NCBI RefSeq assembly: GCF_028858535.1
Contig: NZ_JAPMOU010000004.1
Coordinates: 149,473-213,472, forward strand
Length of the DNA: 64,000 nucleotides
Direction: 5' to 3'
Source of the DNA: Spartinivicinus poritis
GTDB lineage: Bacteria > Pseudomonadota > Gammaproteobacteria > Pseudomonadales > Zooshikellaceae
The translations under genes were made by a program, and so were the position numbers. Under the pieces are notes generated by a model, which searched no databases, was not told the DNA's origin, and saw nothing but the letters and a program-made list of their open reading frames with translations. Positions 9,418 to 43,811 of this stretch are shown here, in pieces (within the stretch, counting starts at the first letter, position 1; each line of letters starts with the position of its first letter).

Positions 9418-10470
9418 TGAACTCTCCATGTTTACATTTAAAAATCAACCTACCTATTTACTAAGTAAATGCACAACTTATCCTGTTACTTATTATTATT
9501 TAAAATATAAGTGCTAACTGAAGAAACTTATGACAATTCATTATTTTTAAACACAAGGAAAAATAATAATATTTTTTAGGAATCTAAAGATAGAAGATGG
9601 TTTTTCAGCTGACAAAGAGTTTTCAGGAATAAGCTACTCCCTACTTATAAAAAACAATGAATAATGCTTTTATTTGATAAAGACACTACTCTAAGCGCTA
9701 CACAGACTAGAAAACAAAGCTTTTAAAGCGATTTACAAATATTACGATTAAAAGTTTAATCAAGGCAAAGAAGTTAATACTAAATAATCTTATACCTGAT
9801 ATAGTCAAAGCGAATGTTTTTTAGGTACAACTACTGAATGCCAAAACACCATAAACCTGACAATAAAATGCTCCTTAGCAATTGCTCCTGCATTACTCTA
9901 ATTGGTGGTATCCATACCATCATACATTACTATCTTTGTTGATTAGCAATGAAGATCAAGTACCCTAGAGGTTTAGATATCTTCCAAGAAGAGTATATTA
10001 TAGGGGCACCTCTAGTATTTGTTATGCCTTTCAGAACTCTCTTTTAGTTGCATAGATCATTGCAAAAATATCATAAACCGAGGATGTTCTAGTAATCACT
10101 CACCAAAGCTCATTTATCAGTCAATCTAAAAATTAACAATTGAGCATTAATTGACTTTAAACACTTTCAAGACTATCCAGTCAAATATAGCTAAATGCTA
10201 TCCTTACATACCTAAAGCGACTAAATACAACCAACTCATAGTAAGTAAGTTATTTTATACACACATTTATTTTTAACTTACAAAAATCAAATTATTTCCA
10301 GGTCTATACAACAACATTAAAATAACATTACAATGTCAACTTATTTACTCAATCCAGTTATAAAAGTAAGTAATCACAATAAGTTCGATTTGAAAGATAA
10401 CTTTTTAAAAGAGTAACTATTTTTTTGTTATCTAAAGATAACTTATTTGCCCTAGTTAGGAGTTTACATT

Positions 10471-20459: not shown

Positions 20460-20669
20460 AAAATGTAGGAACTATGCTGAGCTTTATACATTAAAAACAA
20501 TACTGTATTAAAAATTTATATCCAACTTTTAATACAGGAAACAATGATCTTCCAGAACAGATAATATAACTACTTTAATCATAAAAATTTTAATCAAAAA
20601 TATTTGCCGGAAAACTTGGCCACCAACTAAGAGCACATCCTTGTACACAAAAAGTAACTTATAAAGGCA

Positions 20670-21530
20670 TTACTTCTTTACCGGCATCCGGCTCGCTTTT
20701 AAGCTGTCTTTTATTGCCTTCAGGTGTTTTTGAAAATCTACCCCACGCTTCAAAGTAACACCTGTTGCTAATACATCCAGTACGGTTAAATGCACCATCC
20801 GCGATGCCATGGGCATATATACGTCAGTATCTTCCTGGGTGGTTACTCCAATTGTCAGGGTGCACTCTTCTGCTAAATAAGAGTCTGGAGCAGTAATACC
20901 TATCACGGTAGCGCCAGCTTCGCGGCCTATTTTGGCAACTTCGACTAATTCTCTTGTACGACCAGTGTAGGAAATAATGACGATGACATCGCCCGTTCTA
21001 GCAACTGATGCCACCATTCTTTGCATTAAAAAGTCATCATAAGCCATTACAGGGATATTAAAACGGAAAAATTTGTGCTGGGCATCCATTGCTACTGGGC
21101 CAGAGGCACCTACCCCAAAAAAGCTAATTTGTTTTGCTTGAATCAGATAGTCTACTGCCTTGGTGATTTCATTAGCATCAATACTTTGTCTGGCCGCGTC
21201 CAAGCTGGCGATACTGAAAGAAAAAATCTTGTCTGTGTACTCTTGAGCAGTATCATCTTGCTCTACATTACGACTGACATAAGGGGTACCACTGGCCAGG
21301 CTTTGGGCTAACTGCAACTTGAAATCTGGATAGCCTTTCGCATCAAAACTACGGCAAAACCGGTTAACAGTAGGCTCACTTACACCTGCTTCTTGAGCTA
21401 AGGCAGCGATACTGTAGCGCGTAGCAGAATGTGGGTCTTTCAAAATCACATCAGCTACTTTGCGCTCTGAACGATTTAGCGTATCTAAACTGGTTTTAAT
21501 ACGCTCAATTAAATTTATAGGTCGATTCAT
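20670..21530 (-). CDS. hexR: HexR (RpiR/MurR family, HTH + SIS domain) regulator of central carbon metabolism
   Basis: RpiR-type HTH ([45 protein letters not shown]) followed by a SIS domain. Located divergent from zwf-pgl-eda, as in Pseudomonas. Start set at the internal MNRPINL. The longer ORF-track start would read through into the repeat element. Confidence 0.8.
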
Positions 21531-21663
21531 AAAGCAATCAGAAGACCGGTTAAGTAACAGATATGCCTTCAGGGCAATCGCTGCCGCTAAAAGCGATGTT
21601 CTTTGGCTATACAAATCAGTACTTTGCCAAGCACAGTGAATAAACCACCCCAGACATAGTAGC

Positions 21664-21814
21664 TGTCGCAAAAGTACTTAAAATCAAGTTCCTTCTCCCC
21701 TGTAGGGAGAAGGTTAGGATGAGTGAGTCCGCGTAGCGGAGACTTTAAAGTAACTTCACCCTCACCCCAGCCCTCTCCCAGAGGGAGAGGGAGCTAAATA
21801 TAACTTTTGCGACA
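21664..21814. mobile_element. 151-bp MITE/REP-like element with perfect 12-bp terminal inverted repeats in the hexR-zwf intergenic region
   Basis: TGTCGCAAAAGT at 21664 and ACTTTTGCGACA at 21803 flank three perfect hairpins: CCTTCTCCC-CTGTA-GGGAGAAGG, GTCCGC-GTA-GCGGAC-like, and CCCTCTCCC-AGA-GGGAGAGGG. No coding capacity. Confidence 0.6.
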
Positions 21815-22085
21815 CCCTCTATATGAGAAAGTACGCGGTAACTCAGGGTACACCCCTTTAGGCTGACTATACTGAGTCTAAAAACGCGGCTTATCATAAC
21901 TTGGCTTACATAGTCCTACCAGTATTTAAATGGTCCAAACTTATAACATCATACTACTTACTCTACTGATATGTAGTAAATTTAACAAACAAAATTGCAA
22001 TATCAAGGTTTTAGCCCTATCATCAGGCTAAAAAAGTAATTAGATAACTACAAATTGATCGATACTATGAAAGCTGGTTGTCAGT

Positions 22086-23564
22086 ATGAATTCCAATCAA
22101 GACAAAGTTTGTGACTTAGCTATATTTGGTGCTCAAGGAGACCTGGCACTCCGAAAGCTATTTCCTTCTCTGTTTCAGCTGGATAAAGCAGGCCTGCTGG
22201 ATGCAGAAACACGCATGATCGGGCTGGCTCGCGATCATGTCGACCAACCGGGCTTTAAAGAAAATGTTACAGAACACCTGAAAAAATACATTCCAGCAGA
22301 CGAGCTTGATAACGAAGTACTACAACGTTTTTGTAGTCGGCTTCAATATATCAAGCTGGATTTTGCCACAGAAGAAGGCTATGACCAGCTGGTTGCCACC
22401 CGAGCAAAGGTAAAGCATCGCTTGATATGTTATTTTGCCACACCAGCCTCCGTTTATGGCCCCATTTGTGAAAACTTGTCTAAGCACCAGCTAATAGACA
22501 GCAAAACTCGTGTAGTACTAGAAAAGCCTATTGGTTACGACCTAGCCTCATCTTGCGAAATTAACGATCAAGTGGCTAAGTATTTTGATGAATGCCAAAT
22601 CTATCGTATTGACCACTATTTAGGGAAAGAAACTGTTCAAAACCTTATCGCGTTAAGGTTTGCCAATAATTTGTTTGGCTCACAGTGGGATTTAAATCAT
22701 ATCGATCACATTGAAATCACTGTAGCTGAAAAAGTGGGTATTGAAGGCCGCTGGGGGTATTTTGACAAAGCAGGACAACTGCGAGATATGGTCCAAAATC
22801 ACCTTCTGCAATTACTCTGTTTAATTGCAATGGATCCACCCAGTGACTTATCAGCAGACAGTATCCGTGATGAAAAAGTAAAAGTACTCAAGGCACTACA
22901 GCCTATTACACCAGAGCTATTGACGACACATGTAGTACGTGGCCAATACGGCGCTGGTACTATTGACGGCAAACCAGTACCTGGCTATTTAGAAGAAGAG
23001 AATGCCAAATCCAGCAGTAGTACTGAGTCGTTTGTTTCACTAAAAGTAATGATCAACAACTGGCGTTGGGCCAATGTCCCCTTTTACCTTAGAACAGGTA
23101 AACGGATGCCTGAAAAACTGTCGCAAATCATTATCCACTTTAAACAACAACCTCATTATATTTTTGCACCCGAGCAGCGGAGCATTGCCAGCAATAAATT
23201 AATTATCCGCCTCCAGCCTGACGAAGGTATTTCACTACAGGTGATGACTAAAGACCAAGGCTTGGATAAAGGTATGCGGTTAAGAGCTGGGCCTTTACAA
23301 TTAAGTTTTTCCGACACATTCCACGCCGATCGAATCCCTGATGCTTATGAGCGTCTGCTGTTAGAGCTGATGAAAGGCAATCAATATCTGTTTGTCCGGC
23401 GTGATGAAGTGGAATACGCCTGGCGTTGGTGTGATCGAATTATTCAGGGCTGGGAAGACCAAAATACCCGCCCACAAAAATATCCTGCAGGCTCCTGGGG
23501 GCCGGTTTCTTCAATTGCAATGATTACTCGAGACGGGAGATCCTGGTATGAAGACTCAGCTTAA
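22086..23564 (+). CDS. zwf: glucose-6-phosphate 1-dehydrogenase
   Basis: 492 aa. N-terminal NADP-binding region ([21 protein letters not shown]). The G6PD signature region RIDHYLGKE is present. Confidence 0.95.
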
Positions 23565-24276
23565 TCAGCTAGAAGCGTTGTTAAATAACAAACTGGCTAA
23601 TTTTGATAATGCTGATCAGCTAACAACTGCCCTAGCCACGGATATTACCAAACAACTAACTAAAGCTATTGCAGAAAAAGGGCATGCCACTCTGATTTTA
23701 TCTGGAGGACGCACCCCTATTCCATTATTTAAGCAATTGGCCAATACGGACATTGAATGGGAAAAAGTTTATATCACGCTAGCCGACGAGCGTTGGGTAA
23801 ATCCTGATGATGAAGCGAGCAATGAACGATTAATCCGCCAACACCTATTACAACAGCATGCCGCTAAAGCTAGTTTTACCGGTTTAAAAAATCACCATGA
23901 TTTAGCTACAGCAGGCGAAACTGAATGTAACAATCTATTAGGCAAATTACCTTACCCATTTGATGTGGTAGTGCTGGGAATGGGCAATGACGGGCATACC
24001 GCTTCTTTATTTCCAGAATCTACACGCCTGGCAGAGGGGTTAGATCCCAATAACCCTAACCACTGCCTTGCTATCACCCCAATGCACGCTCCCCATGAGC
24101 GAATGAGTTTAACCTTTGCCTCATTAAAACAAGCCAAACAGATTATTTTACATCTTTGCGGAACAGATAAATTAAATACCTTACAAACTGCCTGTGAGGA
24201 TGGACCCATAGAAGACATGCCAATCAGAGCATTTCTCCGCAGCCAGTTGCCATTGACAGTCTATTGGAGTCCATAG
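23548..24276 (+). CDS. pgl: 6-phosphogluconolactonase
   Basis: 242 aa. Overlaps the zwf stop by 17 nt. LSGGRTP motif of the glucosamine-6-P isomerase / 6PGL family. Confidence 0.9.
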
Positions 24277-24301
24277 TTAGGGATTAAAGGTTTTAAGAAA
24301 T

Positions 24302-24955
24302 ATGACAACACAACTGCCAACGTCTATCACCAGCCAAATTGACCACATTTGTAGTCAGTCTCTGATAATGCCTGTTATTACAATTAATTCTGCTGAACAG
24401 GCATTACCTTTAGCAGAGGCATTATTAGCAGGCGGTATCAATGTATTAGAAATCACCTTACGTTCTGAATATGGCTTAACTGCCATTGCTGAGCTAAGAA
24501 AAAAACTACCAGAAGCCTGGATTGGAGCAGGCACAGTCACCAATCGCGAGCTATTAAAACAAGCGCAAGAGGCAGGCGCACAATTTATAGTAACGCCAGG
24601 CAGCACTGATGATTTATTAGCAGCCGGCGTAACAGCTAATATCCCACTATTACCAGGTATTGCTACTGGCTCCGAATTAATGATGGGGCTGGAAAAAGGC
24701 TATCAACGGTTCAAATTCTTCCCTGCCGCCATAAACGGAGGAACAGCAGCACTAAAAGCATTTTCAGGCCCATTTGGCCAGGTAAAATTCTGCCCAACCG
24801 GCGGAATCAATTTAGACAATGCCGCTGAGTACTTAGCCTTAAATAATGTGATCTGTATAGGCGGTAGCTGGGTAGTATCTAAAGACGCCATCGAAAATAG
24901 CGATTGGAAAAAAATCACTACTATAACCAAAGAAAGTATTGAGCAGTTGGCTTAA
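24302..24955 (+). CDS. eda: KDPG / KHG aldolase
   Basis: 217 aa. Typical Eda fold motifs (PVITIN...LEITLRS; the Schiff-base Lys region GQVKFCPTGGI). Confidence 0.9.
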   Translation: MTTQLPTSITSQIDHICSQSLIMPVITINSAEQALPLAEALLAGGINVLEITLRSEYGLTAIAELRKKLPEAWIGAGTVTNRELLKQAQEAGAQFIVTPGSTDDLLAAGVTANIPLLPGIATGSELMMGLEKGYQRFKFFPAAINGGTAALKAFSGPFGQVKFCPTGGINLDNAAEYLALNNVICIGGSWVVSKDAIENSDWKKITTITKESIEQLA

Positions 24956-25203
24956 TATACCCAATGCGAAGGGTTTTTAGGGCTAGCCTACAGAGGTGAG
25001 GCTAGCAATAATAGCATTAACTGATAAAAGAGCGTTATCGGCAAGCCATCAAGTGACGAGTTCCAGTAGCACTTTTTATATCAATTAAAGTTGCTACCGC
25101 AAGTCTTACAGTAGTAGACTTGCCCCCATGAGCCTATATTAATAGGTGACTGGGGTGAGGAATGAAGATAACAAAACCTAAAAATGATTCGCGACGGGTA
25201 TAA
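24956..25203 (+). repeat. MITE-like structured repeat, copy 1 (full length)
   Basis: Begins TATACCCAATGCGAAGGGTTTTTAGGGCTAGCCTACAG immediately after the eda stop. About 90% identical over ~205 bp to the inverted copy at 34301-34504. Contains the hairpin GCTAGCCT...AGGCTAGC. Confidence 0.8.
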
Positions 25204-25630
25204 TACAGCTAGTGAGGCACTTACAATAGTGTTTACTAAAGGGAGTAATGACTCCCTTTACATTTGAGCATGATATTACTTTTCTACCCCACTAAACATC
25301 GTTGTTTTTTTGCCTTTAATTACTAATGACCAAGCATTTTTTACGCCCGACCCAGTGTAATTATTTTTTTCTGTATCTTTAAACCAATAATACAGTGGCA
25401 AACCATCATAAGTTAACTGTAATCAATTACAACTTAACAACAATACAAAAATAACACCAAAACAATGTTTGATGAGCATACCCCCCCATAAAAGCTCTTG
25501 TTGACTTATATCAATCATTGCTTTTTATTATAATCAAAAGATTACTTTAGAGCTGCCATTACTCTAACTGTCAAGTAAAATAAGCACACGACAATGATCA
25601 ATAACCAACCAATTTTTAAAGGAGTAACCT

Positions 25631-28524: not shown

Positions 28525-30147
28525 CTATGATCTAACCTGATTAAAGCTCAAACCAAACTTAGACAAATAAATCCGTAAACGATGACTATCATTATTAGAT
28601 GCTTTTTGCGTTCGAGAATAATTAAACAATTCCCTTCCTGCCGCCGATAACGACGATTGCTGCTGGCAAATAGAAATCACCTGCTGTAGTTGTAACTGAT
28701 CAAACAAATCAATTGAAGCTAATTGTTCTTCACTAAAATAATGTGCTAAGTCTACACCAAAATGATTAACTTTGGGCTGATCGGTTTGCCAGTGCTTGGA
28801 TAACCGTTCTACTTCTTCACTGACAATGATTTCATTAATTCGTCCTCCTTCTGCTAACGTTAACATCCTTTGTACGCTGGCATTTAAGTCACGAAAATTG
28901 CCTCGCCAACTGGCCTGTGAAGATGTAGCAAAAGCTAGGTATTGCTGCTTTGCCTGTTGATTAAAACTGGCTTTATGGGCTGTTTTTCGCTCATGCTCCT
29001 GTAGCTCATAATTCAAGTTTGGCTCAATATCTTCTTTTCGTTGAGCTAAACCAGGCAGCTGATAAGTCCATAAGTTGATACGAGCTAATAAGTCATCACG
29101 AAATACCCCTTCTTCAACTGCCTGATATAGATCTTTATTGGTGCCAGCTATTTGTTGAAAATCACTTTGGACAGGCTTATCACTACCTAATGGGTAGAAT
29201 GTTTTTTCCTCAATAGCATGTAGTAGCATAGCTTGTTCATCTAGCCCAAGCTCACCAATTTCATCAAGAAATAACAACCCTTGGTTTGCTGCTAATAATA
29301 AACCATCCCGCTTATTTTGAGCTCCAGTAAATGCCCCTTTAATATGACCAAATAATGCTGACATAGCATTATCACCTTTTAAGGTTGCACAGTTAACTGC
29401 AATAAAATCACCAGCAACCAAGCCTTTTTGTTGTTTTAGCTGATAAATTCGTTTTGCCAGCATTGATTTACCTGCTCCAGTTGGCCCAGTAATTAACATG
29501 GGTGCCGTACTCCGAACAGCGACTTTCTCGATCTGCTCGATCATTTGGTTAAACGCTTTATTTTTAGTTTGAATGCCACTTTTTAAGAAAGACTGGTCAT
29601 CTAAAGCTTCTTTTTGAAAACGCTGCGCTAAGGCATCATATTTAGATAAATCCAGATCAATAACGGAGTAAGTACCAATCGCATTACCTTCTTCGTCTTT
29701 TACTCCTGGAGAAGACTGCAATAAACGGGCAGGTATATAGTTAGCTTCACACAATAAAAACCAACAAATCTGCGCTACATGGGTCCCAGTGGTGATGTGC
29801 AAATAGTAGTCTTCCTTTTCAGGCTTAAACGGGTAAGACTGACAGAACTCCAATAGCACACTATAAACTTCTTCAAAATCCCAAGGGTCGATAAAGCGAA
29901 CTGAATGCAAATTGTAAGCTGTATGATTAGACACCTCCTGCACATCTTCACACACCTTAGTTGCCAAGTTTTTATCCCTTGGTTGATGCAGCAACTCTAA
30001 ACGATCTAGCTTAAGATCCTTTTGCTGAAAAATACTAACGGTTGGCCGCCAGCTACTCCAACGCTTAGTCCCTTTACCTCGACGATCCTTAGTCGTACCC
30101 AGCAAACCAATGGCAACCTTAGTTTTGTTTGTTTTTTCACTCGTCAC
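28525..30147 (-). CDS. rtcR: sigma-54-dependent transcriptional regulator RtcR (N-terminal CARF domain, AAA+ sigma-54 activator, C-terminal HTH)
   Basis: 540 aa. Collinear strong similarity to E. coli RtcR as recalled from memory, not searched (VAIGLLGTT, WSSWRPTVSIFQQ, DRLELLH, WDFEEVY, HITTGTHVAQICWFLL, MIEQIEKVA). Walker A LITGPTGAGKS. GAFTGA sigma-54 contact motif. Confidence 0.9.
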   Translation of the reverse strand: MTSEKTNKTKVAIGLLGTTKDRRGKGTKRWSSWRPTVSIFQQKDLKLDRLELLHQPRDKNLATKVCEDVQEVSNHTAYNLHSVRFIDPWDFEEVYSVLLEFCQSYPFKPEKEDYYLHITTGTHVAQICWFLLCEANYIPARLLQSSPGVKDEEGNAIGTYSVIDLDLSKYDALAQRFQKEALDDQSFLKSGIQTKNKAFNQMIEQIEKVAVRSTAPMLITGPTGAGKSMLAKRIYQLKQQKGLVAGDFIAVNCATLKGDNAMSALFGHIKGAFTGAQNKRDGLLLAANQGLLFLDEIGELGLDEQAMLLHAIEEKTFYPLGSDKPVQSDFQQIAGTNKDLYQAVEEGVFRDDLLARINLWTYQLPGLAQRKEDIEPNLNYELQEHERKTAHKASFNQQAKQQYLAFATSSQASWRGNFRDLNASVQRMLTLAEGGRINEIIVSEEVERLSKHWQTDQPKVNHFGVDLAHYFSEEQLASIDLFDQLQLQQVISICQQQSSLSAAGRELFNYSRTQKASNNDSHRLRIYLSKFGLSFNQVRS

Positions 30148-30366
30148 ACCAACCTCACCTTATTACATTGCATACAAATGCTGCTACTCGGCCCTACCAA
30201 TTAACCGCTAACATACATATTATTTATATAGATCAATATTATATCCATATAGATATTTCAACAACAAAACTTCAGCGACAGCAATTCATGCTGGCCTCTC
30301 AGGTGATTCTTGCTATACCTTGAATATCAAGGCCTCCAACACTTTTAACAAAGAAATTTTAAAAGT

Positions 30367-30382
30367 TGGCACGTTAATCGCC
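30367..30382 (+). promoter_or_regulatory. candidate sigma-54 (-24/-12) promoter divergent from rtcR
   Basis: TTGGCACGTTAATCGCC. It has an exact TGGCACG -24 element and GG-N10-GC spacing, with -12 TCGC (one mismatch to TTGC). Orientation reads rightward into the tRNA-like RNA region, mirroring the rtcR/rtcBA divergent arrangement. Confidence 0.4.
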
Positions 30383-30607
30383 TTATGATTACTGTGCAAA
30401 GCGGAATGCTTTAGCAGGTCTGGTTTTTTGCTTCAAACCAAAGCCAGCCTGGTAACTCTTGTTTCAAGTAAGTTGTACCAAAGCGTCCCAAGACACAGTG
30501 CCCTTTCTCGGCATGGATTCGTAAGAATCTTATTGGGTTTTTTATGATATGGCATACAACTGGGTTCGAGTCCCTAAAAACCACCATTCATACTGGCTTT
30601 TAACCAG

Positions 30608-30680
30608 TGCTTGATAGCTCATTTGGTAGAGCAGTTGCTTAGGGAGCAATTGGTAGAAGGTTCGATTCCTTCTCAAGCTG
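30608..30680 (+). tRNA. tRNA-like element / atypical tRNA (anticodon AGG, U1.U72 mismatch), possibly a Y-RNA-like tRNA mimic or pseudo-tRNA
   Basis: Folds into a full cloverleaf by hand. Acceptor is 6 bp plus a U.U pair. U8-A9 present. D-arm GCTC/ATTTGGTA/GAGC with G18G19. Anticodon arm GTTGC/TTAGGGA/GCAAT (U33, anticodon AGG, R37). 5-nt variable loop. T-arm GAAGG/TTCGATT/CCTTC. No encoded CCA. The body resembles tRNA-Lys but the anticodon loop is altered. AGG is not a normal bacterial anticodon. Confidence 0.5.
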
Positions 30681-30720
30681 TATAAATGTAAAAAGACTAC
30701 GCAAGTAGTCTGCAATGAAA

Positions 30721-30849
30721 TATACCCAAAGCGAAGGGTTTTTAGGTGAGGCTATCGAGTGATGAAGCCCCGTGAGCCTATAAATAATAGGTGATTGGGG
30801 TGAGTCACGATGATAACAAAGCCTAAAAGCGATTCGCGAAAGGTATAAA
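30721..30849 (+). repeat. MITE-like structured repeat, copy 2 (internally deleted, direct orientation relative to copy 1)
   Basis: TATACCCAAAGCGAAGGGTTTTTAGG ... GAGCCTATAAATAATAGGTGATTGGGGTGAG ... GATAACAAAGCCTAAAAGCGATTCGCGAAAGGTATAA matches both ends of copy 1. Confidence 0.75.
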
Positions 30850-31231
30850 AGAGGTTAGCGGTTGTTGCCGCTGTTTAGCTTAATTAAATAACAGCATTAA
30901 ATTTATCAAAACTTAAAGTGAATGCAGGAAGCAATTACTTAAGGAATGGTGACTTTAATGAGGTAGCTAAAGCTGTACTAGTAGTTACCAGTTATTTAAT
31001 TATTTGGTTCGTTATTGAATCATTCCTTACAGGGTTACATTCTGTGGATCAACCACATACGATGTACAAATGTAAGCGAACCATTCTTTAACCACCACTA
31101 TTCAAGTAACCGCCCCTAACTTCTTTAGTTATGATGAGTCGCTTTTTAGTAGTTAATCAACTACTGACCAGTACTCATCATGACTAATAAGTCCTATTTT
31201 TAAGGGCATTTAGATTTAATGGAGATGTATT

Positions 31232-32770
31232 GTGTTTAAGAAAATAGTTGTCGGGCAAAATGAGCGACTAATTGTTGTTAAAGATAAAAGATTAAGTAAA
31301 GTTCTATCGACAGGAGTACATTATCTGCCTATTTGGCAATATGATGATGTAGAATTGGTTAGTACTGAGTCAGTACGCTTCACTCATGACAGCCTAGAAC
31401 AGTGGCTAAAAGAGCCTGTATTTTTACAATATTTTGATAAACTAGAGTTAGGCCGATTTGAAGTTGGGTTAGTTTATAAACATGGTCAGCTTTGGCAGTT
31501 ATTAAACCCGGCGACTACCCACTATTTGTGGAAAAATAGTGATGATATTGAGGTGCGTACCATCAATACCGAAAATAGTTATTATCTTGAAGATGATCTA
31601 TTATGGCAATTAACAAACAAAGAGCAGTTTGTTATTAATGCTAATACCAGTAATGTTACTACCCATAAAGTTAATGCAGGATTCGTTGCTTTAATCTATG
31701 TGGACAGCCAACTTATCGATTTGCAAGGTGAAGGTGAGTTTGGAGTATGGCAGTATCAGCGCAAAATTGAAGTAGTCATGATGGATACCCGCAAAGGGTT
31801 AAAACTTGATTATATATTGCAGGAAAACTGGTTAGAAATTCCTGCTGTTGCAGAACAAATTGCGCTATTTAAAACTGAACCACAGCAAGTTGGGCTACTG
31901 TATGAAGTACAGCATGGCCAGCGTCGTTTTAATCAATTACTGCCACCAAATACTGAAATTGCTGTATGGCAACAGAATAAAGTGTGGGAGCTTGATCTGG
32001 TTGATATCAACAACGACTTTCGGGTAACCAAACCATTGCTAGATAGCTTACGTCAGTATTTAAGTGGCCAGTGGTTAACAACCTCTATCGACCAACAGCA
32101 TATCGGTTTGCTACTGCAAGATGGTCAATTGGTTAGCACCCTGAATACTGGGCTACACGCTTATTGGCCTTTTGGTCGCCAACTGGAAATAAAACAGTTT
32201 GATTTACGCTGGCAAACAGTGGAAGTCAGTGGACAAGAAATATTAACCAAAGATCGGGTTAGTGTGCGGGTCAACCTAAACGCCAACTATCGTATTTTAG
32301 ATGCGGTAACGACTTTTGAAAGCGTTAACAATGTTAATGAGTTTATTTACCGTACGTTACAGCTAGCATTACGAGAAGCCATAGGTACACGAAACTTAGA
32401 TGATTTGTTAATGGATAAAGAGCATGTAAATCAGCTATTGCTAAAGCAATCAGCGGAGCATTTATCATCTATTGGGATAGAGCTTGGTCAACTGGGAATA
32501 AAAGACATTATTTTACCTGGTGAGATGAAGGAAATTCTTAACCAGGTGGTTAATGCCCAAAAATCAGCAGAAGCTAACAGCATCAAGCGTCGGGAAGAAA
32601 CAGCTGCTACTCGTAGCCTGCAAAACACCGCCAAAGTTATGGAAGGCAACCCAACTTTGCTGCGCTTGAAAGAACTGGAGTCATTGGAGAAAGTAGCAGA
32701 AAAAATTGACCAATTAAATGTATATGGAGGATTAGAACAAGTAATGAATGGCTTAGTTAAGCTAAAGTAA
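31232..32770 (+). CDS. SPFH/Band 7 (stomatin/prohibitin-like) domain protein
   Basis: 512 aa. N-terminus VVGQNERLIVVKDKRL is typical of the SPFH beta-start. The C-terminal region carries an SPFH core and coiled-coil (ILPGEMKEILNQVVNAQKSAEA...). No NfeD partner adjacent. Confidence 0.75.
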   Translation: MFKKIVVGQNERLIVVKDKRLSKVLSTGVHYLPIWQYDDVELVSTESVRFTHDSLEQWLKEPVFLQYFDKLELGRFEVGLVYKHGQLWQLLNPATTHYLWKNSDDIEVRTINTENSYYLEDDLLWQLTNKEQFVINANTSNVTTHKVNAGFVALIYVDSQLIDLQGEGEFGVWQYQRKIEVVMMDTRKGLKLDYILQENWLEIPAVAEQIALFKTEPQQVGLLYEVQHGQRRFNQLLPPNTEIAVWQQNKVWELDLVDINNDFRVTKPLLDSLRQYLSGQWLTTSIDQQHIGLLLQDGQLVSTLNTGLHAYWPFGRQLEIKQFDLRWQTVEVSGQEILTKDRVSVRVNLNANYRILDAVTTFESVNNVNEFIYRTLQLALREAIGTRNLDDLLMDKEHVNQLLLKQSAEHLSSIGIELGQLGIKDIILPGEMKEILNQVVNAQKSAEANSIKRREETAATRSLQNTAKVMEGNPTLLRLKELESLEKVAEKIDQLNVYGGLEQVMNGLVKLK

Positions 32771-34149: not shown

Positions 34150-34300
34150 CCATTGTGAATTTATACCCGTATCGAATCATTTTTAGGTTTTGTTATCTTC
34201 GTTCCTAATCACCAAGGATGGTGTGAATGCAGTTAATGCATTATGACATGGATGTCATGTATTAGGGCAATGCAGGAGTAGTTGCCTAGGAGCATTTAAC

Positions 34301-34504
34301 TGTCACCCCAATCACTTATTAATATAGGCTCATGGGGACAAGTCTACTACTGTAAGACTTGCGGTAGCGACTTTAATGGATATAAAAGTGCTACTGGAAC
34401 TCGTCACTTGATGGCTTACCAATAACGCTGTTTTATCAATTAATGCTATTATTGCTAGCCTCACTGCTGTAGGCTAGCCCTAAAAACCCTTCACATTGGG
34501 TATA
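34301..34504 (-). repeat. MITE-like structured repeat, copy 3 (inverted relative to copy 1)
   Basis: Its reverse complement begins TATACCCAATGTGAAGGGTTTTTAGGGCTAGCCTACAGCAGTGAGGCTAGC and stays ~90% identical to copy 1 through ...GGGGTGA. Confidence 0.8.
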
Positions 34505-34610
34505 TATAACGTTAAAAACACATAAATATTAAAGCAATCAATATCATAAAAAGCGTTTATAACAATTTTTTACCAGTTAGGCTTATGAAAATTATATAGC
34601 TCAGAACCTA

Positions 34611-37970: not shown

Positions 37971-38213
37971 TTGCACAGTTGGCTGTATTATCTAACGTTT
38001 ATTTTCTTAACTGCCTTTGTATTTTTAAATATGATGGTAGATACGATCTTAGATGTAATGAGCCAAGAGCAAGAAAAATTTCGCGCTGAATCTCATGGTG
38101 AAACAGAAGAAGGTGGTACACCTGCCAGTCGGGCTCAGATTGAAAAGCTAGAAAAAGAGTTAACTGAAATAAAAGCGCTATTAAAACAACAAACATCTAT
38201 CAAAGAACAATAG
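37971..38213 (+). CDS. hypothetical membrane-anchored coiled-coil peptide
   Basis: 80 aa. N-terminal hydrophobic helix then a charged coiled-coil. Weak support. Confidence 0.3.
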   Translation: MHSWLYYLTFIFLTAFVFLNMMVDTILDVMSQEQEKFRAESHGETEEGGTPASRAQIEKLEKELTEIKALLKQQTSIKEQ

Positions 38214-38277
38214 CTACTTTTAGTTAGCCCAGCGAAATTTATCTTCTGAGCTAACACAAACTGTAGGACACCTTTAA

Positions 38278-39240
38278 TCAGGAAATATAACTATTATTAA
38301 GTGCCGCAGCCGCTCCCACTAACCCAGGATATTCACTTAATACTAAATAAGTAGGTATTTTTTCTGCGTAGCTTTGTAACCGCCCTTTATTTTCAAATGA
38401 TTGCCTAAATTGACTCGCAGCAAAAAAATCTTTAAAGCGTGGAATAATACCACCCATTATGTAAACGCCCCCTTCTGCTCCCAAGATAAGCGCTGCATTA
38501 CCTGCAGCAGCACCCAACAAATTACAGAAATGGGCTAGTACTTGATGCTCTATTGAGTTTTCATCACTTAATGCTATGGATGATATATCAGCTGCTGACT
38601 GCTGCTTAACAGGTACTTTGTTTAATTGGCAATGGGCTTCATATAAATCCACCAAGCCGGCACCACATAGCAGTCTTTCAACTGATACGCGTGGATACTT
38701 TTTTAAGAAAAATTCCAGAACATCCATTTCAAAGCGATTGCGGGGGGCAAAATCCACATGGCCGCCTTCGCCGGATAATGCTAACCAACCACTGCTGGTT
38801 GAAGCTAATCCTGCCATACCTAGCCCTGTGCCCGGACCAATCACCAATTTAGTTTTATTTGCAACAGCTTCACCGCCGCCTATTTGCATTAATTCATCGT
38901 TAGTTAAATAAGGTACTGATAAGGCAAGTGCCGTAAAATCATTAATTACCTTAAATGAATCAAAACCAAATTGCTGCTGCACAGCTGACTGTGAAAAATC
39001 CCAATGGTTATTGGTCATTTTAATTCGGTCTTGATGAATAGGACAAGCAAAGGATAAACAAGCTTGTTTGACATCGGGATTGCCCACCAATGCTAAATAA
39101 TCAGCTAACGCATCTGGCATATTGTTATAGTCTGCGCAGGGCAGCACTTCGATTAACTCAGGCTGCACACCCCCATCTAATACCATGGCAAACCGGGCGT
39201 TTGTGCCCCCAATATCACCAACGACAATTGGTTGGTTCAT
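38278..39240 (-). CDS. glk: glucokinase
   Basis: 320 aa. N-terminus [15 protein letters not shown] matches the Glk ATP-binding motif. Overlaps the edd stop by 4 nt. Confidence 0.9.
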
Positions 39241-41066
39241 TTAACTTCCTCATTCGCAAAACCAAACACTGAAGCACCCTGTTCAGCACCACCGGCAAAC
39301 GCTCGCATTTGACCGAACAGCTCTCGGCCCATGCCTTGGTGAGAGTTGGATAAATCCACCTCAACTGCTGTACGCTGCAGCCATTCTTGATCATCGACTA
39401 ATGCAGTCAACTCTCCGGTTTCTGCATTTAAACGTATAACATCGCCTTCCCGCAGTTTGGCAATTGGTCCACCTTGGGCAGCTTCAGGATACACATGAAT
39501 AGCTGCCGGCACTTTACCAGAAGCACCTGACATTCGGCCATCAGTAACTAATGCGACTTTAAATCCCTTATCTTGCAATACACCCAAATAAGGCGTCAGT
39601 TTATGTAGTTCTGGCATGCCAATCGCCTGTGGCCCTTGAAAGCGCACCACAGCAATAAAGTCTCTTTCCAGTTCTCCGCGTTTAAAGGCTTCAGCTAAAT
39701 CATTTTGATCATGGAAAATTACCACGGGGGCTTCAACTATTTGATTATCCTTAGCGACGGCCGACACTTTGATCACACCACGGCCTATATTGCCATTTAA
39801 TAGTTTTAAACCACCTTCCGGGCTAAATGGATTTGCTGCAGGTCTTAGTACCTCCGCATCATGAGTTTCCTCCACTCCATCTCGCCACACTAACTTATCC
39901 CCATCCAAGAAAGGTTCTTGCGTGTATTGACGAAGCCCTTTGCCAACTACAGTTGTGACATCATCATGAAGCAAGCCACTATCTAACAATTCACGTATTA
40001 AAAAAGCCATCCCCCCAGCTGCCTGAAAATGATTAATATCTGCCTGACCATTGGGATATATCTTGGTTAATAAAGGCACCACCGAAGAGAGTTCTGAAAA
40101 ATCATCCCAGGTTATGTTTACCCCTGCTGCTGCTGCCATCGCAACTAAATGCATGGTGTGGTTAGTTGAGCCACCAGTCGCCAGCAATGCCACCACAGCA
40201 TTGATAATCGTCTTTTCAGATACCACCTGATACATTGGTGTAAAATCACTACCTAATGCAGTAATTCGAGCCGCTTGTCGAGTCGCTTCTTTTGTCAGCT
40301 CATCACGTAGCGGAGTATTAGGATTAATAAAGGATGCTCCTGGCAAGTGTAAGCCCATCACTTCAACTAGCAGCTGGTTACTATTAGCTGTTCCGTAGAA
40401 GGTACAAGTGCCTGGGCCATGGTAAGACTGAGATTCCGCTTCAAGTAATTCTTCTCTACCGACTTTACCTTCAGCAAACAATTGGCGAATTCGAGCTTTT
40501 TCCTTATTTGGCAAACCTGATGGCATTGGGCCTGCTGGTACAAATATCACAGGTAAATGACCAAAGCGTAAGGCACCTATAAATAAGCCAGGCACAATCT
40601 TGTCGCATACCCCCAGGCACAGAGCTGCATCAAACATATTGTGGGAAAGGGCTACTGCAGTAGCCATTGCAATCACATCACGACTGAATAGGCTTAGCTC
40701 CATACCCGGCTGGCCTTGAGTCACCCCATCACACATCGCCGGTACCCCACCAGCAAACTGAGCCACCGAACCAACATCATGGGCAGCTTGTTTAATTAGC
40801 TCAGGAAATACCTCCAAAGGCTGGTGTGCAGACAACATGTCGTTATATGACGAAATAATCCCTATATTGGCCTGATTCATCATCTTAAGTGCCTGCTTGT
40901 CTCCACCAGAACAGGCAGCAAAGCCGTGGGCTAAATTACCACAAGACAATACCCCTCGATGAGGGCCCTTTTGCTCCGCATGCTTCATCGCTTGCAGGTA
41001 GGCTTGCCGAGAGCGACGACTTCTCTCGATAACCCTACGGGTTACGTTATCTACTACTGGGTGCAT
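39237..41066 (-). CDS. edd: phosphogluconate dehydratase (Entner-Doudoroff)
   Basis: 609 aa. ILVD/EDD family motifs: CDGVTQG, the Fe-S Cys ligands and C-terminal GRMSGASG. Adjacent to glk and zwf-pgl-eda. Confidence 0.95.
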
Positions 41067-41327
41067 GGGGCCTCCTCATCTTTTTTCCCGAAGCATAGGA
41101 TATGGGCTTTCGTTCCTAGCAAATATTGTAATATTACATAACTTTTTAAATTTATTTCAGCATTCCAGCTTGTTAACTGGAATTTTTATTTGTAATATTA
41201 CCAAACAAACAGAATAAGAGTCTTCTTTTTATTTTCTCATAAATTTGGCAAGAGTCGCCTGTTATGTGAACGTTTATTTAAAAAGTACATGGTAATGTGG
41301 CTTGTATCAGCTTGTTAGGAGGTTTAA

Positions 41328-42332
41328 ATGACCATTCGTGTTGCCATTAATGGTTATGGTCGTATCGGTCGTAATATCTTGCGTGCTCTGTACGAAAATG
41401 GCTATCGAGACCGAATCCAAGTCGTTGCAATTAATGATTTAGGCGATGCAGAAATCAATGCCCACCTAACCCGTTTTGACAGCGTTCATGGTCGCTTTGC
41501 TGGTGAAGTAAAAACAGCAGGCAACGCTATGCAGGTTAATGGTGATACCATTCGTATCAGCTCAGAGCGTGACCCAGCCAAGTTGGATTGGAGCTCATTA
41601 AATGTTGATGTGGTTTATGAGTGCACAGGCCTGTTTACCAGTAGAGAAAAAGCCGCCGCTCACCTACAAGCAGGTGCCAAAAAAGTCATTATCTCTGCAC
41701 CAGGTAAAGATGTAGATGCCACCATCGTATATGGTGTTAATCACGACATATTACGCCAGTCTCATCAAATTATTTCCAGTGCATCTTGCACTACAAACTG
41801 TTTAGCGCCTGTAGCCAAAGCATTAAATGACAAAATTGGGATTGAGTCAGGCCTGATGACCACTATTCATGCCTATACCAATGACCAAAATTTATCTGAT
41901 GTCTATCACTCAGATATGTACCGTGCACGTTCCGCGACTCAATCTATGATTCCAACCAAAACCGGTGCTGCCGCAGCCGTTGGGTTAGTGTTGCCTGAAC
42001 TTAATGGCAAACTGGATGGACAAGCCGTGCGGGTACCCACCATTAATGTTTCACTTGTCGATTTGAACTTTGTTGCCAGCCGTGCCACCTCTATTGAAGA
42101 GGTTAACAGCATAATGAAAGCAGCAAGCGAAGCTTCAACTATTCTGGATTATAACGATATTAAATTGGTGTCTATCGACTTTAATCACAGCACAGCCTCA
42201 GCCACTTTCGACTCTACCCAAACTCGGGTAAACGGCCAGCTGGTAAAAGTAATGGCTTGGTACGACAACGAGTGGGGCTTCTCTAATCGAATGCTCGATA
42301 ACACCTTAGCTTTAATTAATGCACCTGCATAA
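41328..42332 (+). CDS. gap: glyceraldehyde-3-phosphate dehydrogenase
   Basis: 334 aa. N-terminus [12 protein letters not shown]. Catalytic region [11 protein letters not shown]. Confidence 0.9.
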
Positions 42333-42362
42333 ATTAGACGATAGCCTGTAGAAGATTACCTG

Positions 42363-43811
42363 ATGATTCGCAGAACTAAAATTGTAGCAACCCTTGGTCC
42401 TTCCTCTAGCGAGATTGAAACGTTAGAACAGATGATCGCAGCTGGGGTCAATGTTGTTCGTTTAAACTTCTCCCATGGAGAAGCCCAGGACCACATTGAA
42501 CGCGCCCAGCGGGTTCGTGAGGCGGCTGCCCGTCAACAAGCGTTTGTTGCAATTTTAGGTGATTTGCAAGGGCCAAAAATTCGTATTTCTCGTTTTAAAA
42601 ACAAAAAAATAGAATTAAAAAATGACGATACTTTTATCTTAGATGCCAAGTTAGATAAAGAAGCAGGCACTGAAGAACGAGTTGGTATTGAATACAAAGC
42701 ATTAGTCGCCGACTCAAAACCTGGTGATATTTTATTATTAGACGACGGCCGTATTGAGCTTGAAGTAACAGGTGTTACCGCTCACGAAGTCATCACCAAA
42801 GTCATTATTGGTGGTCCATTATCTAATAACAAAGGTATTAATCGCCAAGGTGGCGGCTTATCAGCAAAAGCTTTAACTGAAAAAGATAAGCAAGATATTA
42901 AAACGGCAGCAAAAATTGGCGTCGATTATGTAGCGGTTTCCTTTCCACGCTCTGCTGAAGATATGGAAGAAGCGCGACAGCTTCTTAAAGAAGCAGGCTC
43001 AAGCGCTGGCTTAATTGCCAAAATTGAAAGAGCTGAAGCAGTAAATGACGATGAAATTTTAGATGGTATTATTAAATCATCTGAAGGGGTAATGGTTGCC
43101 CGTGGTGATTTAGGTGTTGAAATTGGTAATGCCCAATTGGTTGCCGTGCAAAAGCATATTATTGAACGTGCTCGCACCTTAAATAAAATTGCGATTACAG
43201 CGACTCAAATGATGGAGTCAATGATCAGCAACCCTATGCCAACTCGGGCCGAAGTATCTGATGTAGCCAATGCTGTTTTAGATGGCACCGATGCTGTCAT
43301 GCTTTCAGCAGAAACGGCAGCAGGGTTGTATCCAGTACAAACTATAGAAGCAGTACATAATGTGTGTGTTGGCGCTGAAAAACATCCTTTAGCGTTTCGA
43401 TCTAAACACCGTATCGACGAGCCTTTTCAGCGCACAGATGAATCAATAGCATTGGCAGCTATGTATATTGCCAATCATTTGCAAGGTGTTAAAGCAATTA
43501 TTGCAATGACCGAAAGTGGGGCTACTCCATTACTGATGTCCCGCATCCGCTCGCATTTGCCTATTTTTGCTTTTTCACGCCGCAAGGACACCCAAAACCG
43601 GGTTGCTCTCTATCGAGGGGTCATTACCGTACCTTTTGATACGGATGAAATTGACAACGCTCAAGTGAATCAGTGCTCTATTGATAAACTAAAAGCACTG
43701 GATGTTGTTAATGAAGGTGACCTGGTAATTATCACCAAGGGCGATTATGCCAACGCCCAAGGTGGCACCAACACCATGAAAGTGGTTAAGGTGGGTAACA
43801 AAATTCTTTAA
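42363..43811 (+). CDS. pyk: pyruvate kinase
   Basis: 482 aa. N-terminus [15 protein letters not shown] signature region ([11 protein letters not shown]). Confidence 0.9.

Follow-up and report, generated by a model that had tools for sequence, protein, structure and literature searches.

The 64-kb stretch of Spartinivicinus poritis DNA analysed here (the window) carries, at positions 30608-30680 of the forward strand, a small gene with the shape of a tRNA. We consider it very probable that this gene encodes a b7a-type tRNA-like RNA that does not decode. It sits in a 1.08-kb non-coding stretch between a divergent gene for the regulator RtcR and a gene for a Band-7/SPFH protein, and it joins a known family, predicted by bioinformatics, in an unusual configuration without RtcB. 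The b7a-tRNA was predicted by Burroughs & Aravind (NAR 2016), as summarised in Wang et al. 2018 (bioRxiv 10.1101/312249); the latter raises a possible redundancy of the b7a-tRNA with the Y RNA YrlA and calls it experimentally unvalidated as of 2018. Taken as a whole, the data are probably best explained by a selectively maintained b7a-tRNA of the Band-7-proximal subtype that acts as an RNA partner in an RtcR-controlled response.

ARAGORN makes a single tRNA call in the window, this gene, and labels it tRNA-Pro with anticodon AGG. Against the Rfam tRNA model (RF00005) the gene scores 59.4 bits, with a gathering threshold of 29 and E=2.5e-10 for the whole window, and it aligns end to end over model positions 1-71. 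An earlier note on this DNA had listed the universal features of a tRNA, and reading of the sequence together with the Rfam alignment confirms each of them. The nucleotides U8, A14, G18G19, A21, U33, G37, T54-T55-C56, A58 and C61 are in place, the D, anticodon and T stems have 4, 5 and 5 bp, and the variable loop is 5 nt long (UGGUA). The non-standard AGG anticodon that the note had read, in the loop UU-AGG-GA, is also what ARAGORN scoring calls, and a sequencing error in the loop as its source does not apply. The acceptor end is as odd as had been claimed: U1 faces U72, the only non-canonical pair that Rfam flags, the discriminator is G73, and TATAAA follows directly, so CCA is not encoded. 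The body does resemble tRNA-Lys, the best E. coli match, with 80% identity over positions 4-63. This likeness says little about the window copy, because a body of the type uAGCUCA..GGUAGAGCA is common to the whole family.

A family of tRNA-like genes in front of Band-7

Relatives of the Band-7 protein are widespread. When one genome of each species was searched with aligned Band-7 homologues, at least 597 stretches from Gammaproteobacteria, Betaproteobacteria and Cyanobacteria proved to encode one, and we examined the best 80 loci, which come from the same three groups, for a tRNA-like gene (individual loci are given below by L numbers). Of the 81 regions put through ARAGORN (the 80 loci and the window), 62 have one or two such genes, which share the strand of Band-7 and lie 165-800 nt before it. 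We built a covariance model, R1, from 83 tRNA-like genes (alignment A2), and genes matching R1 lie on the same strand directly 5' of Band-7 in 75 of the 80 loci. Four of the five R1-negative loci are without upstream sequence; the fifth, L005 from Pseudomonas soli, is truly without a tRNA-like gene. When neighbouring open reading frames (ORFs) are clustered, RtcR and RtcB are each found in 35 loci, RtcA in 16 and RlaP in 12; divergent upstream RtcR homologues, 52-59% identical, lie within 7 kb in 35 of the 80. The gene orders, with arrowheads for strand, include the following:

RtcR<, tRNA-like gene, Band-7>, RtcB>, RtcA>, RlaP>
RtcR<, RtcB>, tRNA-like gene, Band-7>
RtcB>, RtcA>, tRNA-like gene, Band-7>
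HNH>, tRNA array, tRNA-like gene, Band-7>
tRNA-like gene, Band-7> alone

RtcB and RtcA can thus be downstream, upstream or absent, and RtcR present or not, while the tRNA-like gene stays directly 5' of Band-7. Since this holds across all gene orders, the conserved unit is the tRNA-like gene together with Band-7.

The cloverleaf of the family is under selection. Its positions pair in 94% of alignment cells, a share that column shuffling lowers to 65% and sliding of the partners to 43% or less; the covariation score is 0.763 vs 0.187, with double (compensatory) changes in 20 of 21 pairs. Across phyla, identity is at least 90% in both the D-arm (uAGCUCA..GGUAGAGCA) and the T-loop. The window copy has both, which supports its membership independently of its R1 score of 71.2 bits, a figure that is partly circular because this copy is among the 83 training sequences.

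The oddities of the window copy (A34, the 1:72 mismatch and the absent CCA) are family traits. Pair 1:72 is open in 37 of 78 distinct rows (38 of 80 counting all rows), and every other pair is open in at most 16%. Of 83 members, 26 encode CCA. The anticodon loop has 7 nt in 51 of the 83, 3-6 nt in 30 and 8 nt in 2, and the 51 seven-nt loops carry 18 different triplets, with A34 in 10. Orthologues at the Band-7 position therefore keep neither one anticodon (18 triplets) nor a 7-nt loop (32 of 83 have other lengths).

Where two tRNA-like genes stand in tandem (22 pairs), the upstream and the Band-7-proximal member can be compared, and they form two subtypes:

G1: upstream member 16/22; Band-7-proximal member 0/22
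1:72 paired: upstream member 19/22; Band-7-proximal member 4/22
7-nt anticodon loop: upstream member 4/22; Band-7-proximal member 18/22
CC(A) tail: upstream member 14/22; Band-7-proximal member 5/22

The gene at 30608-30680 fits the Band-7-proximal profile exactly.

Within the seven-nt loops, a canonical framework surrounds a variable triplet. Of the 51 loops, 42 have C32, 39 have U33, 39 have A37 and 47 have A38; positions 34 and 35 are nearly free, with entropies of 1.90 and 1.62 bits, compared with 0.5-1.15 bits at 32, 33, 37 and 38. Seven close pairs (body divergence <=12%) show differences at 38% of triplet sites, compared with 9.4% in the body and 7% in the loop flanks (Fisher p ~7e-4). 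Judging by these partly dependent pairs, the anticodon triplet appears to turn over about four times faster than the body. Two Cellvibrio loci, for example, have CU-GUU-AA and CU-ACG-GA on a nearly identical body. Two strains of Enterovibrio norvegicus (L030:6652-6725 and L051:6649-6722) differ over 74 nt by two substitutions only, both of them in the anticodon loop (CCAAG vs CAACG). The window loop UU-AGG-GA, with G35, G36 and G37, is of the proline type and unusual in this family, which mostly has NNU triplets with A37.

The leader, its regulator and the Band-7 protein

The features of the locus are listed in map order:

28525-30147 (-): RtcR, a CARF-domain sigma-54-dependent activator (Pfam PF06956 RtcR, 5.2e-79; Sigma54_activat, 3.7e-49)
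30367-30381 (+): candidate sigma-54 promoter with -24/-12 elements TGGCACgttaaTCGC (pattern TGGCAYN5TYGC)
30536-30586 (+): putative degenerate upstream ('type A') tRNA-like remnant with acceptor stem GGUUUUU/AAAAACC and T-arm only, 3' end ACCACCA (R1)
30591-30609 (+): free-standing anticodon-stem-loop mimic, UACUGG-CUUUUAA-CCAGUG, 6-bp stem and 7-nt loop (fold z=-2.3)
30608-30680 (+): Band-7-proximal ('type B') b7a tRNA-like gene (ARAGORN, Rfam tRNA, R1, covariation in 83 homologues)
30694-30711 (+): GNRA-tetraloop hairpin AGACUAC-GCAA-GUAGUCU, just 3' of the tRNA-like gene (fold z=-5.5)
30718-30850 (+): copy of a dispersed MITE/REP-like palindromic repeat, 133 nt (fold z=-9.45; -7.7 to -9.5)
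30856-30873 (+): terminator-like hairpin TAGCGGTTGTTGCCGCTG, then TTTAGCTT (from a consensus scan)
31105-31187 (+): proximal leader element, motif AGUAACCGCCCCUAAC, then a near-perfect hairpin at 31124-31187 (z=-8.8, unique in the window)
31232-32770 (+): Band-7/SPFH ('slipin') protein, 512 aa, predicted soluble, with 4-5 N-terminal beta repeats, SPFH domain and long helix

The RtcR context that the earlier note had invoked is thus real, and the window is a reduced RtcR/tRNA-like/Band-7 unit, unusual in having no RtcB or RtcA. A neighbouring RtcB may not be a strict requirement of the family, since it is adjacent in only 35 of the 80 related loci. Compared with a typical rtc operon under RtcR and sigma-54, the window has the divergent RtcR and a -24/-12 site and is without the operon's RtcB ligase and RtcA cyclase. 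The pattern TGGCAYN5TYGC occurs twice in the 64 kb where 0.64 matches are expected, and it is found 100-250 nt 5' of the tRNA-like genes in many RtcR-bearing loci. From its sequence and place, the site at 30367-30381 presumably functions as a promoter. The second site, 39612-39626 (+) (TGGCATGCCAATCGC), falls within the coding sequence of edd, which is on the other strand, and is most likely a chance match.

Two further tRNA-derived modules precede the cloverleaf. The one at 30536-30586 reaches 15.2 bits with R1 when searched for locally and without filters (E=3e-4), and it takes the place of the upstream member of the tandem pairs. With a fold z of +0.24, thermodynamics does not support it as a stable minihelix, an assignment that we rejected, and we therefore report it only as a degenerate remnant. 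The hairpin at 30591-30609 has the loop CUUUUAA, which we take to be the canonical anticodon loop of tRNA-Lys(UUU). Its 3' strand shares 2 nt with tRNA positions 1-2; because of this overlap the hairpin and the cloverleaf could compete, and such competition may relate to the unpaired U1. Hairpins of the form YU-NNN-RA stand beside tRNA-like genes in 15 of 73 loci, compared with 3.4+-2.0 in controls.

The GNRA hairpin downstream is also a common companion: hairpins of this kind (stem >=4 bp) lie within 90 nt downstream of the tRNA-like gene in 42 of 73 loci vs 4.6+-2.1 in random windows. A further partial tRNA module follows in 26 loci and combines an anticodon-arm-like hairpin with a GNRA 'variable arm' and a T-arm. 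The spacers of the family are more structured than shuffled sequence (median z=-2.6, with 32 of 72 below -3). At L016:6690-6775, L063:6760-6840 and L009:6560-6640, a partial module only (GGUAA, a GNRA-type hairpin and a T-arm) replaces the full tRNA-like gene. As these RtcR/Band-7 loci keep no more than this, the T-arm and elbow may be the minimal conserved part.

A spacer of 551 nt separates the end of the tRNA-like gene (30680) from the Band-7 gene on the same strand, and it owes this length to the MITE/REP-like insertion. Other copies of the repeat, at 24954-25215 (+), 34181-34505 (-) and, in part, 9806-9826, are all intergenic; the copies have common inverted termini (ATATACCCAAWGCGAAGGGTTTTTAGG ... 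CCTAAAAAYGATTCG..GGGTATAAA) and variable internal content, with lengths of about 133, 270 and 350 nt. We rejected the long hairpin at 30718-30850 as a Y-RNA-like stem of the RNA, as it is a copy of this dispersed repeat and no part of the system. A short tRNA-like transcript could end at the terminator-like hairpin that follows it, or this hairpin could attenuate read-through. Closer to the Band-7 start, the motif AGTA[AG]CCGCCNCTAAC of the proximal leader element recurs at a matching place (-127 vs -151/-152) in the Pseudoalteromonas loci L001-L003 and L066; the apex of the 31124-31187 hairpin is not conserved with the Pseudoalteromonas loci. An nhmmer search of the window spacer against the other loci gave no match, and a k-mer scan found T-arm, GNRA-hairpin and ribosome-binding-site motifs only. 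The only other shared spacer sequence is the 16-nt motif near the Band-7 start, in common with Pseudoalteromonas, that is described above. The leader of the Pseudomonas soli locus (L005:6400-7000) holds GGCCGCUGGAGCAAUGCUCCCGGCC, which resembles the apex motif GGCAAGCUGGAUGCUCCCC of a long leader hairpin in Pseudoalteromonas/Motilimonas loci (L001-L003, L066, L007).

The Band-7 protein matches, at 100% identity, a slipin-family protein of Spartinivicinus poritis, which belongs to the Zooshikellaceae (Gammaproteobacteria). It has no transmembrane segment (the maximum of a 19-residue Kyte-Doolittle window is 1.02), and in its AF2 model (pLDDT 80.9) four or five small beta-repeat units come before an SPFH domain and a long helix. 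A Foldseek search aligns stomatin, HflK/C and prohibitin with no more than the C-terminal 220-250 columns, and the major vault protein (MVP) over 560-627 columns (E 1e-11 to 1e-8). The predicted model suggests a soluble ring or cage scaffold. In the model, Band-7 has the same succession of repeats, SPFH domain and long helix as MVP; sequence identity between the two is ~11%. On MVP homologues in bacteria, a 2019 preprint covers other proteins and makes no mention of RNA-repair contexts.

Proposed role and alternatives

How would such an RNA work? When RtcR is active, the sigma-54 promoter at 30367 would transcribe a composite leader of tRNA-derived modules ahead of Band-7: the degenerate acceptor/T-arm minihelix, the Lys-type anticodon-stem-loop mimic, the full cloverleaf and the GNRA hairpin. 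The cloverleaf, whether excised by processing or left in place, would be a non-decoding mimic of tRNA that is not aminoacylated, and it would most likely serve in trans as the RNA partner of a soluble, vault-like Band-7 oligomer to which it binds. The partnership would operate during a response to RNA damage, chiefly damage to tRNA anticodon loops, in parallel to the pairing of Ro with Y RNA and of the vault with vault RNA. Proteins would recognise the tRNA shape that the stems and the conserved D/T elbow supply, and the fast-changing triplet in an otherwise canonical loop could be a variable mimic or bait for anticodon-loop enzymes, or a specificity element. RtcR itself has been proposed to sense cleaved tRNA: in Salmonella, tRNA 5' halves with cyclic phosphate ends are proposed to activate it (PMC7790460 and PMC10159003). 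RlaP, a frequent member of the operon, acts on tRNA cleaved in the anticodon loop. We put forward this specific mechanism of partner and bait tentatively, as one possible form of the broader explanation given at the outset.

Known systems provide partial parallels. The window element shares with the b7a-tRNA its position and shape, a cloverleaf on the same strand 5' of Band-7; it differs from the family in the Pro-type loop and in having no RtcB, RtcA or RlaP within 64 kb, and its leader adds the degenerate minihelix, the Lys-type anticodon-stem-loop mimic and the MITE insertion. The earlier note had suggested a regulatory tRNA mimic like a Y RNA. The suggestion was essentially right in kind, as the element belongs to the b7a family; it is not a Y RNA. 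In the Salmonella rsr-yrlBA-rtcBA locus, YrlA/YrlB and Ro60 (Rsr) likewise pair a tRNA-mimicking RNA with a scaffold protein that forms a ring or cage, under RtcR/sigma-54 control, but YrlA has a tRNA-like domain within a larger RNA, whereas the window element is a complete 73-nt cloverleaf. No Ro60/Rsr (TROVE) gene is present among 19 ORFs scanned between 19 and 46 kb, a subset of the ORFs there. The Rfam Y-RNA models give no match at E<=10 in 29500-32000, and the 5' and 3' ends of the element form no Ro-binding stem. Apart from tRNA, Rfam at E<=10 gave only chance matches to known RNA families, such as snoR29, mir-4869 and V_AS5.

In Anabaena, a slipin, rtcB and the trn operon are co-induced by translational stress, with TrcR as the regulator (PMC10272220). 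Several of the related loci resemble this trn operon: arrays of 4-19 canonical-looking tRNAs stand just 5' of the b7a-tRNA/Band-7 pair in L021, L023, L042, L049, L053, L062, L073, L074 and L015, often with an HNH endonuclease gene. Array tRNAs of this type have standard anticodons and many encode CCA, whereas no array is present in the window, whose one tRNA-like gene is aberrant. Some phage tRNAs escape the anticodon nucleases of the host through changes in their anticodon loops (van den Berg et al. 2023, cited in PMC11090510); there too, variation is concentrated in the anticodon loop and the setting is a conflict over tRNA cleavage. Phage tRNAs, however, remain decoders with 7-nt loops and standard acceptor ends, while ~39% of b7a members have loops of other lengths and the proximal members have frayed acceptor ends.

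The likeness to the vault can be taken further. Band-7 would then form a soluble bacterial cage similar to the vault, with beta repeats, an SPFH shoulder and a cap helix, and the tRNA-like RNA with its anticodon-stem-loop mimic would be its 'vault RNA': fast-evolving Pro- and Lys-type baits that, under RtcR control, trap anticodon nucleases or signal their presence, or else bring tRNA-handling enzymes into the cage. We regard this extension as speculative and rather unlikely. Vault RNAs are not cloverleaves and are described as binding via TEP1, which has a TROVE domain, and not via MVP. PARP4 of the vault has a VIT-vWA domain pair, as do proteins encoded after Band-7 in three Vibrionaceae loci (L019, L030 and L051, where they follow Band-7 or Band-7 and RtcB). 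If the extension is true, the eukaryotic vault particle would have a forerunner among prokaryotes, one with a defined role in defence against RNA damage, and the window would show it in a minimal form that needs no linked RtcB ligase.

Several points weigh against the reading of the gene as a maintained, non-decoding RNA partner. First, the window itself has no RtcB, RtcA or RlaP in its 64 kb by tblastn with the L001 proteins, so an RNA-repair role here would need enzymes encoded elsewhere. Second, L005 has an RtcR/sigma-54/Band-7 locus with a GC-rich structured leader and neither a tRNA-like gene nor, as far as that leader goes, a Y RNA substitute; Band-7 can thus do without the tRNA-like gene. 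Third, U33, G37, A38 and a 7-nt loop are retained and CCA can be added post-transcriptionally, so decoding is formally possible. Fourth, the MITE-like insertion and the terminator-like hairpin may uncouple transcription of the tRNA-like gene from that of Band-7. The seven pairs behind the estimate of triplet turnover are not fully independent, one being effectively duplicated, and the similarity to the vault comes from a predicted model with a low global TM-score of 0.30-0.38. The definition of b7a-tRNA used here is that of the Wang et al. 2018 summary and the 2016 abstract, and our literature search returned no later experimental study of b7a-tRNA and no data on its expression, processing or binding.

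The alternative that fares best is that the tRNA-shaped modules act in cis only. In the leader of the Band-7 mRNA they would be punctuation, cut by RNase P, RNase Z or RNase E so as to set the 5' end and the stability of the message, and the excised RNA would have no function in trans. The gene is indeed on the same strand, always 5' of the Band-7 start (by 165-630 nt) and inside a structured leader, and tandem copies abut head to tail as in a tRNA operon. Partial modules of T-arm and hairpin suffice in L016, L063 and L009, and L005 has none. A pure RNase P/Z signal, however, would need no conserved D-arm, no anticodon stem and no canonical loop with a fast-changing triplet. A non-G1 start and a mismatched 1:72 are, moreover, poor features for an RNase P substrate. 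We consider a role in cis alone quite unlikely.

A second alternative makes the RNA a sentinel for RtcR. Anticodon nucleases would cut the bait, and the 5' half, with its 2',3'-cyclic phosphate, would bind the CARF domain of RtcR and boost its own promoter. The proposed activation of Salmonella RtcR by such halves, the place of the gene directly behind the RtcR/sigma-54 promoter, and the canonical loop framework with its variable triplet all agree with this. Yet no more than 35 of the 80 loci have a detectable RtcR within 7 kb, cyanobacteria are reported to be without RtcR (PMC10272220), and there would be little use in a sentinel that is made only after induction. Since the pairing of tRNA-like gene and Band-7 persists without RtcR, the conserved link is to Band-7, not to RtcR. 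This makes a sentinel or amplifier improbable.

Could the gene be a decoder after all? It might be a stress-induced tRNA-Pro(AGG), or a nuclease-resistant replacement tRNA, that receives CCA post-transcriptionally and is charged when RtcR is active. All nucleotides for the universal tertiary interactions are present. The standard Pro anticodon loop is UU-NGG-GA, from which UU-AGG-GA departs at position 34 alone, with G37 retained. The canonical-looking tRNA arrays 5' of Band-7 in related loci and the induction of a tRNA operon alongside slipin and rtcB in Anabaena under translational stress (PMC10272220) would also suit a decoder. Against this, AGG falls outside the bacterial Pro set of CGG, GGG or UGG, and to our knowledge A34 is essentially absent from bacterial decoders other than tRNA-Arg(ACG). 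At the acceptor end, the identity elements of ProRS in E. coli are G72 and A73, and the gene has U1.U72, no Watson-Crick pair, and G73. Homologues at the same position have loops of 3-6 or 8 nt in 39% of cases and 18 triplets among the rest, and proximal members almost never have G1 or a paired 1:72. None of these traits agrees with selection for decoding. An unusual Pro decoder, which the earlier note had offered as an option, is unlikely given that AGG, U1.U72 and the missing CCA are all variable or degenerate traits across the family, and we rate stress-induced decoding as very improbable.

The two remaining options of the note, a decaying, functionless copy of tRNA-Lys and the remnant of a tRNA-targeted island, have in their favour the closest E. 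coli match and a ~13-kb stretch of DNA, partly low in GC, that interrupts a metabolic gene cluster, and they are hardly credible: 83 homologues with 94% pairing, compensatory changes and an invariant T-loop contradict decay, while the fixed Band-7 synteny across Gammaproteobacteria, Betaproteobacteria and Cyanobacteria, the absence from the window of a second copy of the 22-nt 3' end (up to 3 mismatches) and the absence of an integrase among the 19 ORFs scanned between 19 and 46 kb, a subset of those there, contradict a remnant.

Annotation and the surrounding DNA

A b7a-type RNA at this place has practical consequences. tRNA finders label b7a genes as tRNA-Pro(AGG), tRNA-His(AUG) or "tRNA-???", which inflates tRNA gene sets and distorts inference about codon usage; such genes should be annotated as Band-7-associated tRNA-like RNAs. 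The RtcR/RtcB response, to which the family is linked, is induced by ribosome-targeting antibiotics and by tRNA cleavage. The two subtypes, the GNRA hairpin, the fast triplet turnover and a soluble protein partner of predicted vault-like architecture offer experimental handles, and the unit in the window, being without RtcB, is a simple system for asking what the RNA/Band-7 pair does alone.

The unit lies within a stretch that interrupts a metabolic gene cluster. A cluster of Entner-Doudoroff and glycolysis genes (an rpiR/hexR-like regulator, zwf, pgl, eda ... glk, edd, gap, pyk) is found at ~20600-25000 and 38200-43800 and appears to be split by ~13 kb. The intervening DNA encodes a T2SS/T4P-type ATPase with an MshEN domain, RtcR, the tRNA-like gene, Band-7, a GH129 gene that follows Band-7 in convergent orientation, and a penicillin-binding/beta-lactamase-like protein. 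It includes a low-GC stretch, with a GC of 0.31 at 34-38 kb. These observations suggest that the ~13 kb splitting the cluster is horizontally acquired DNA.

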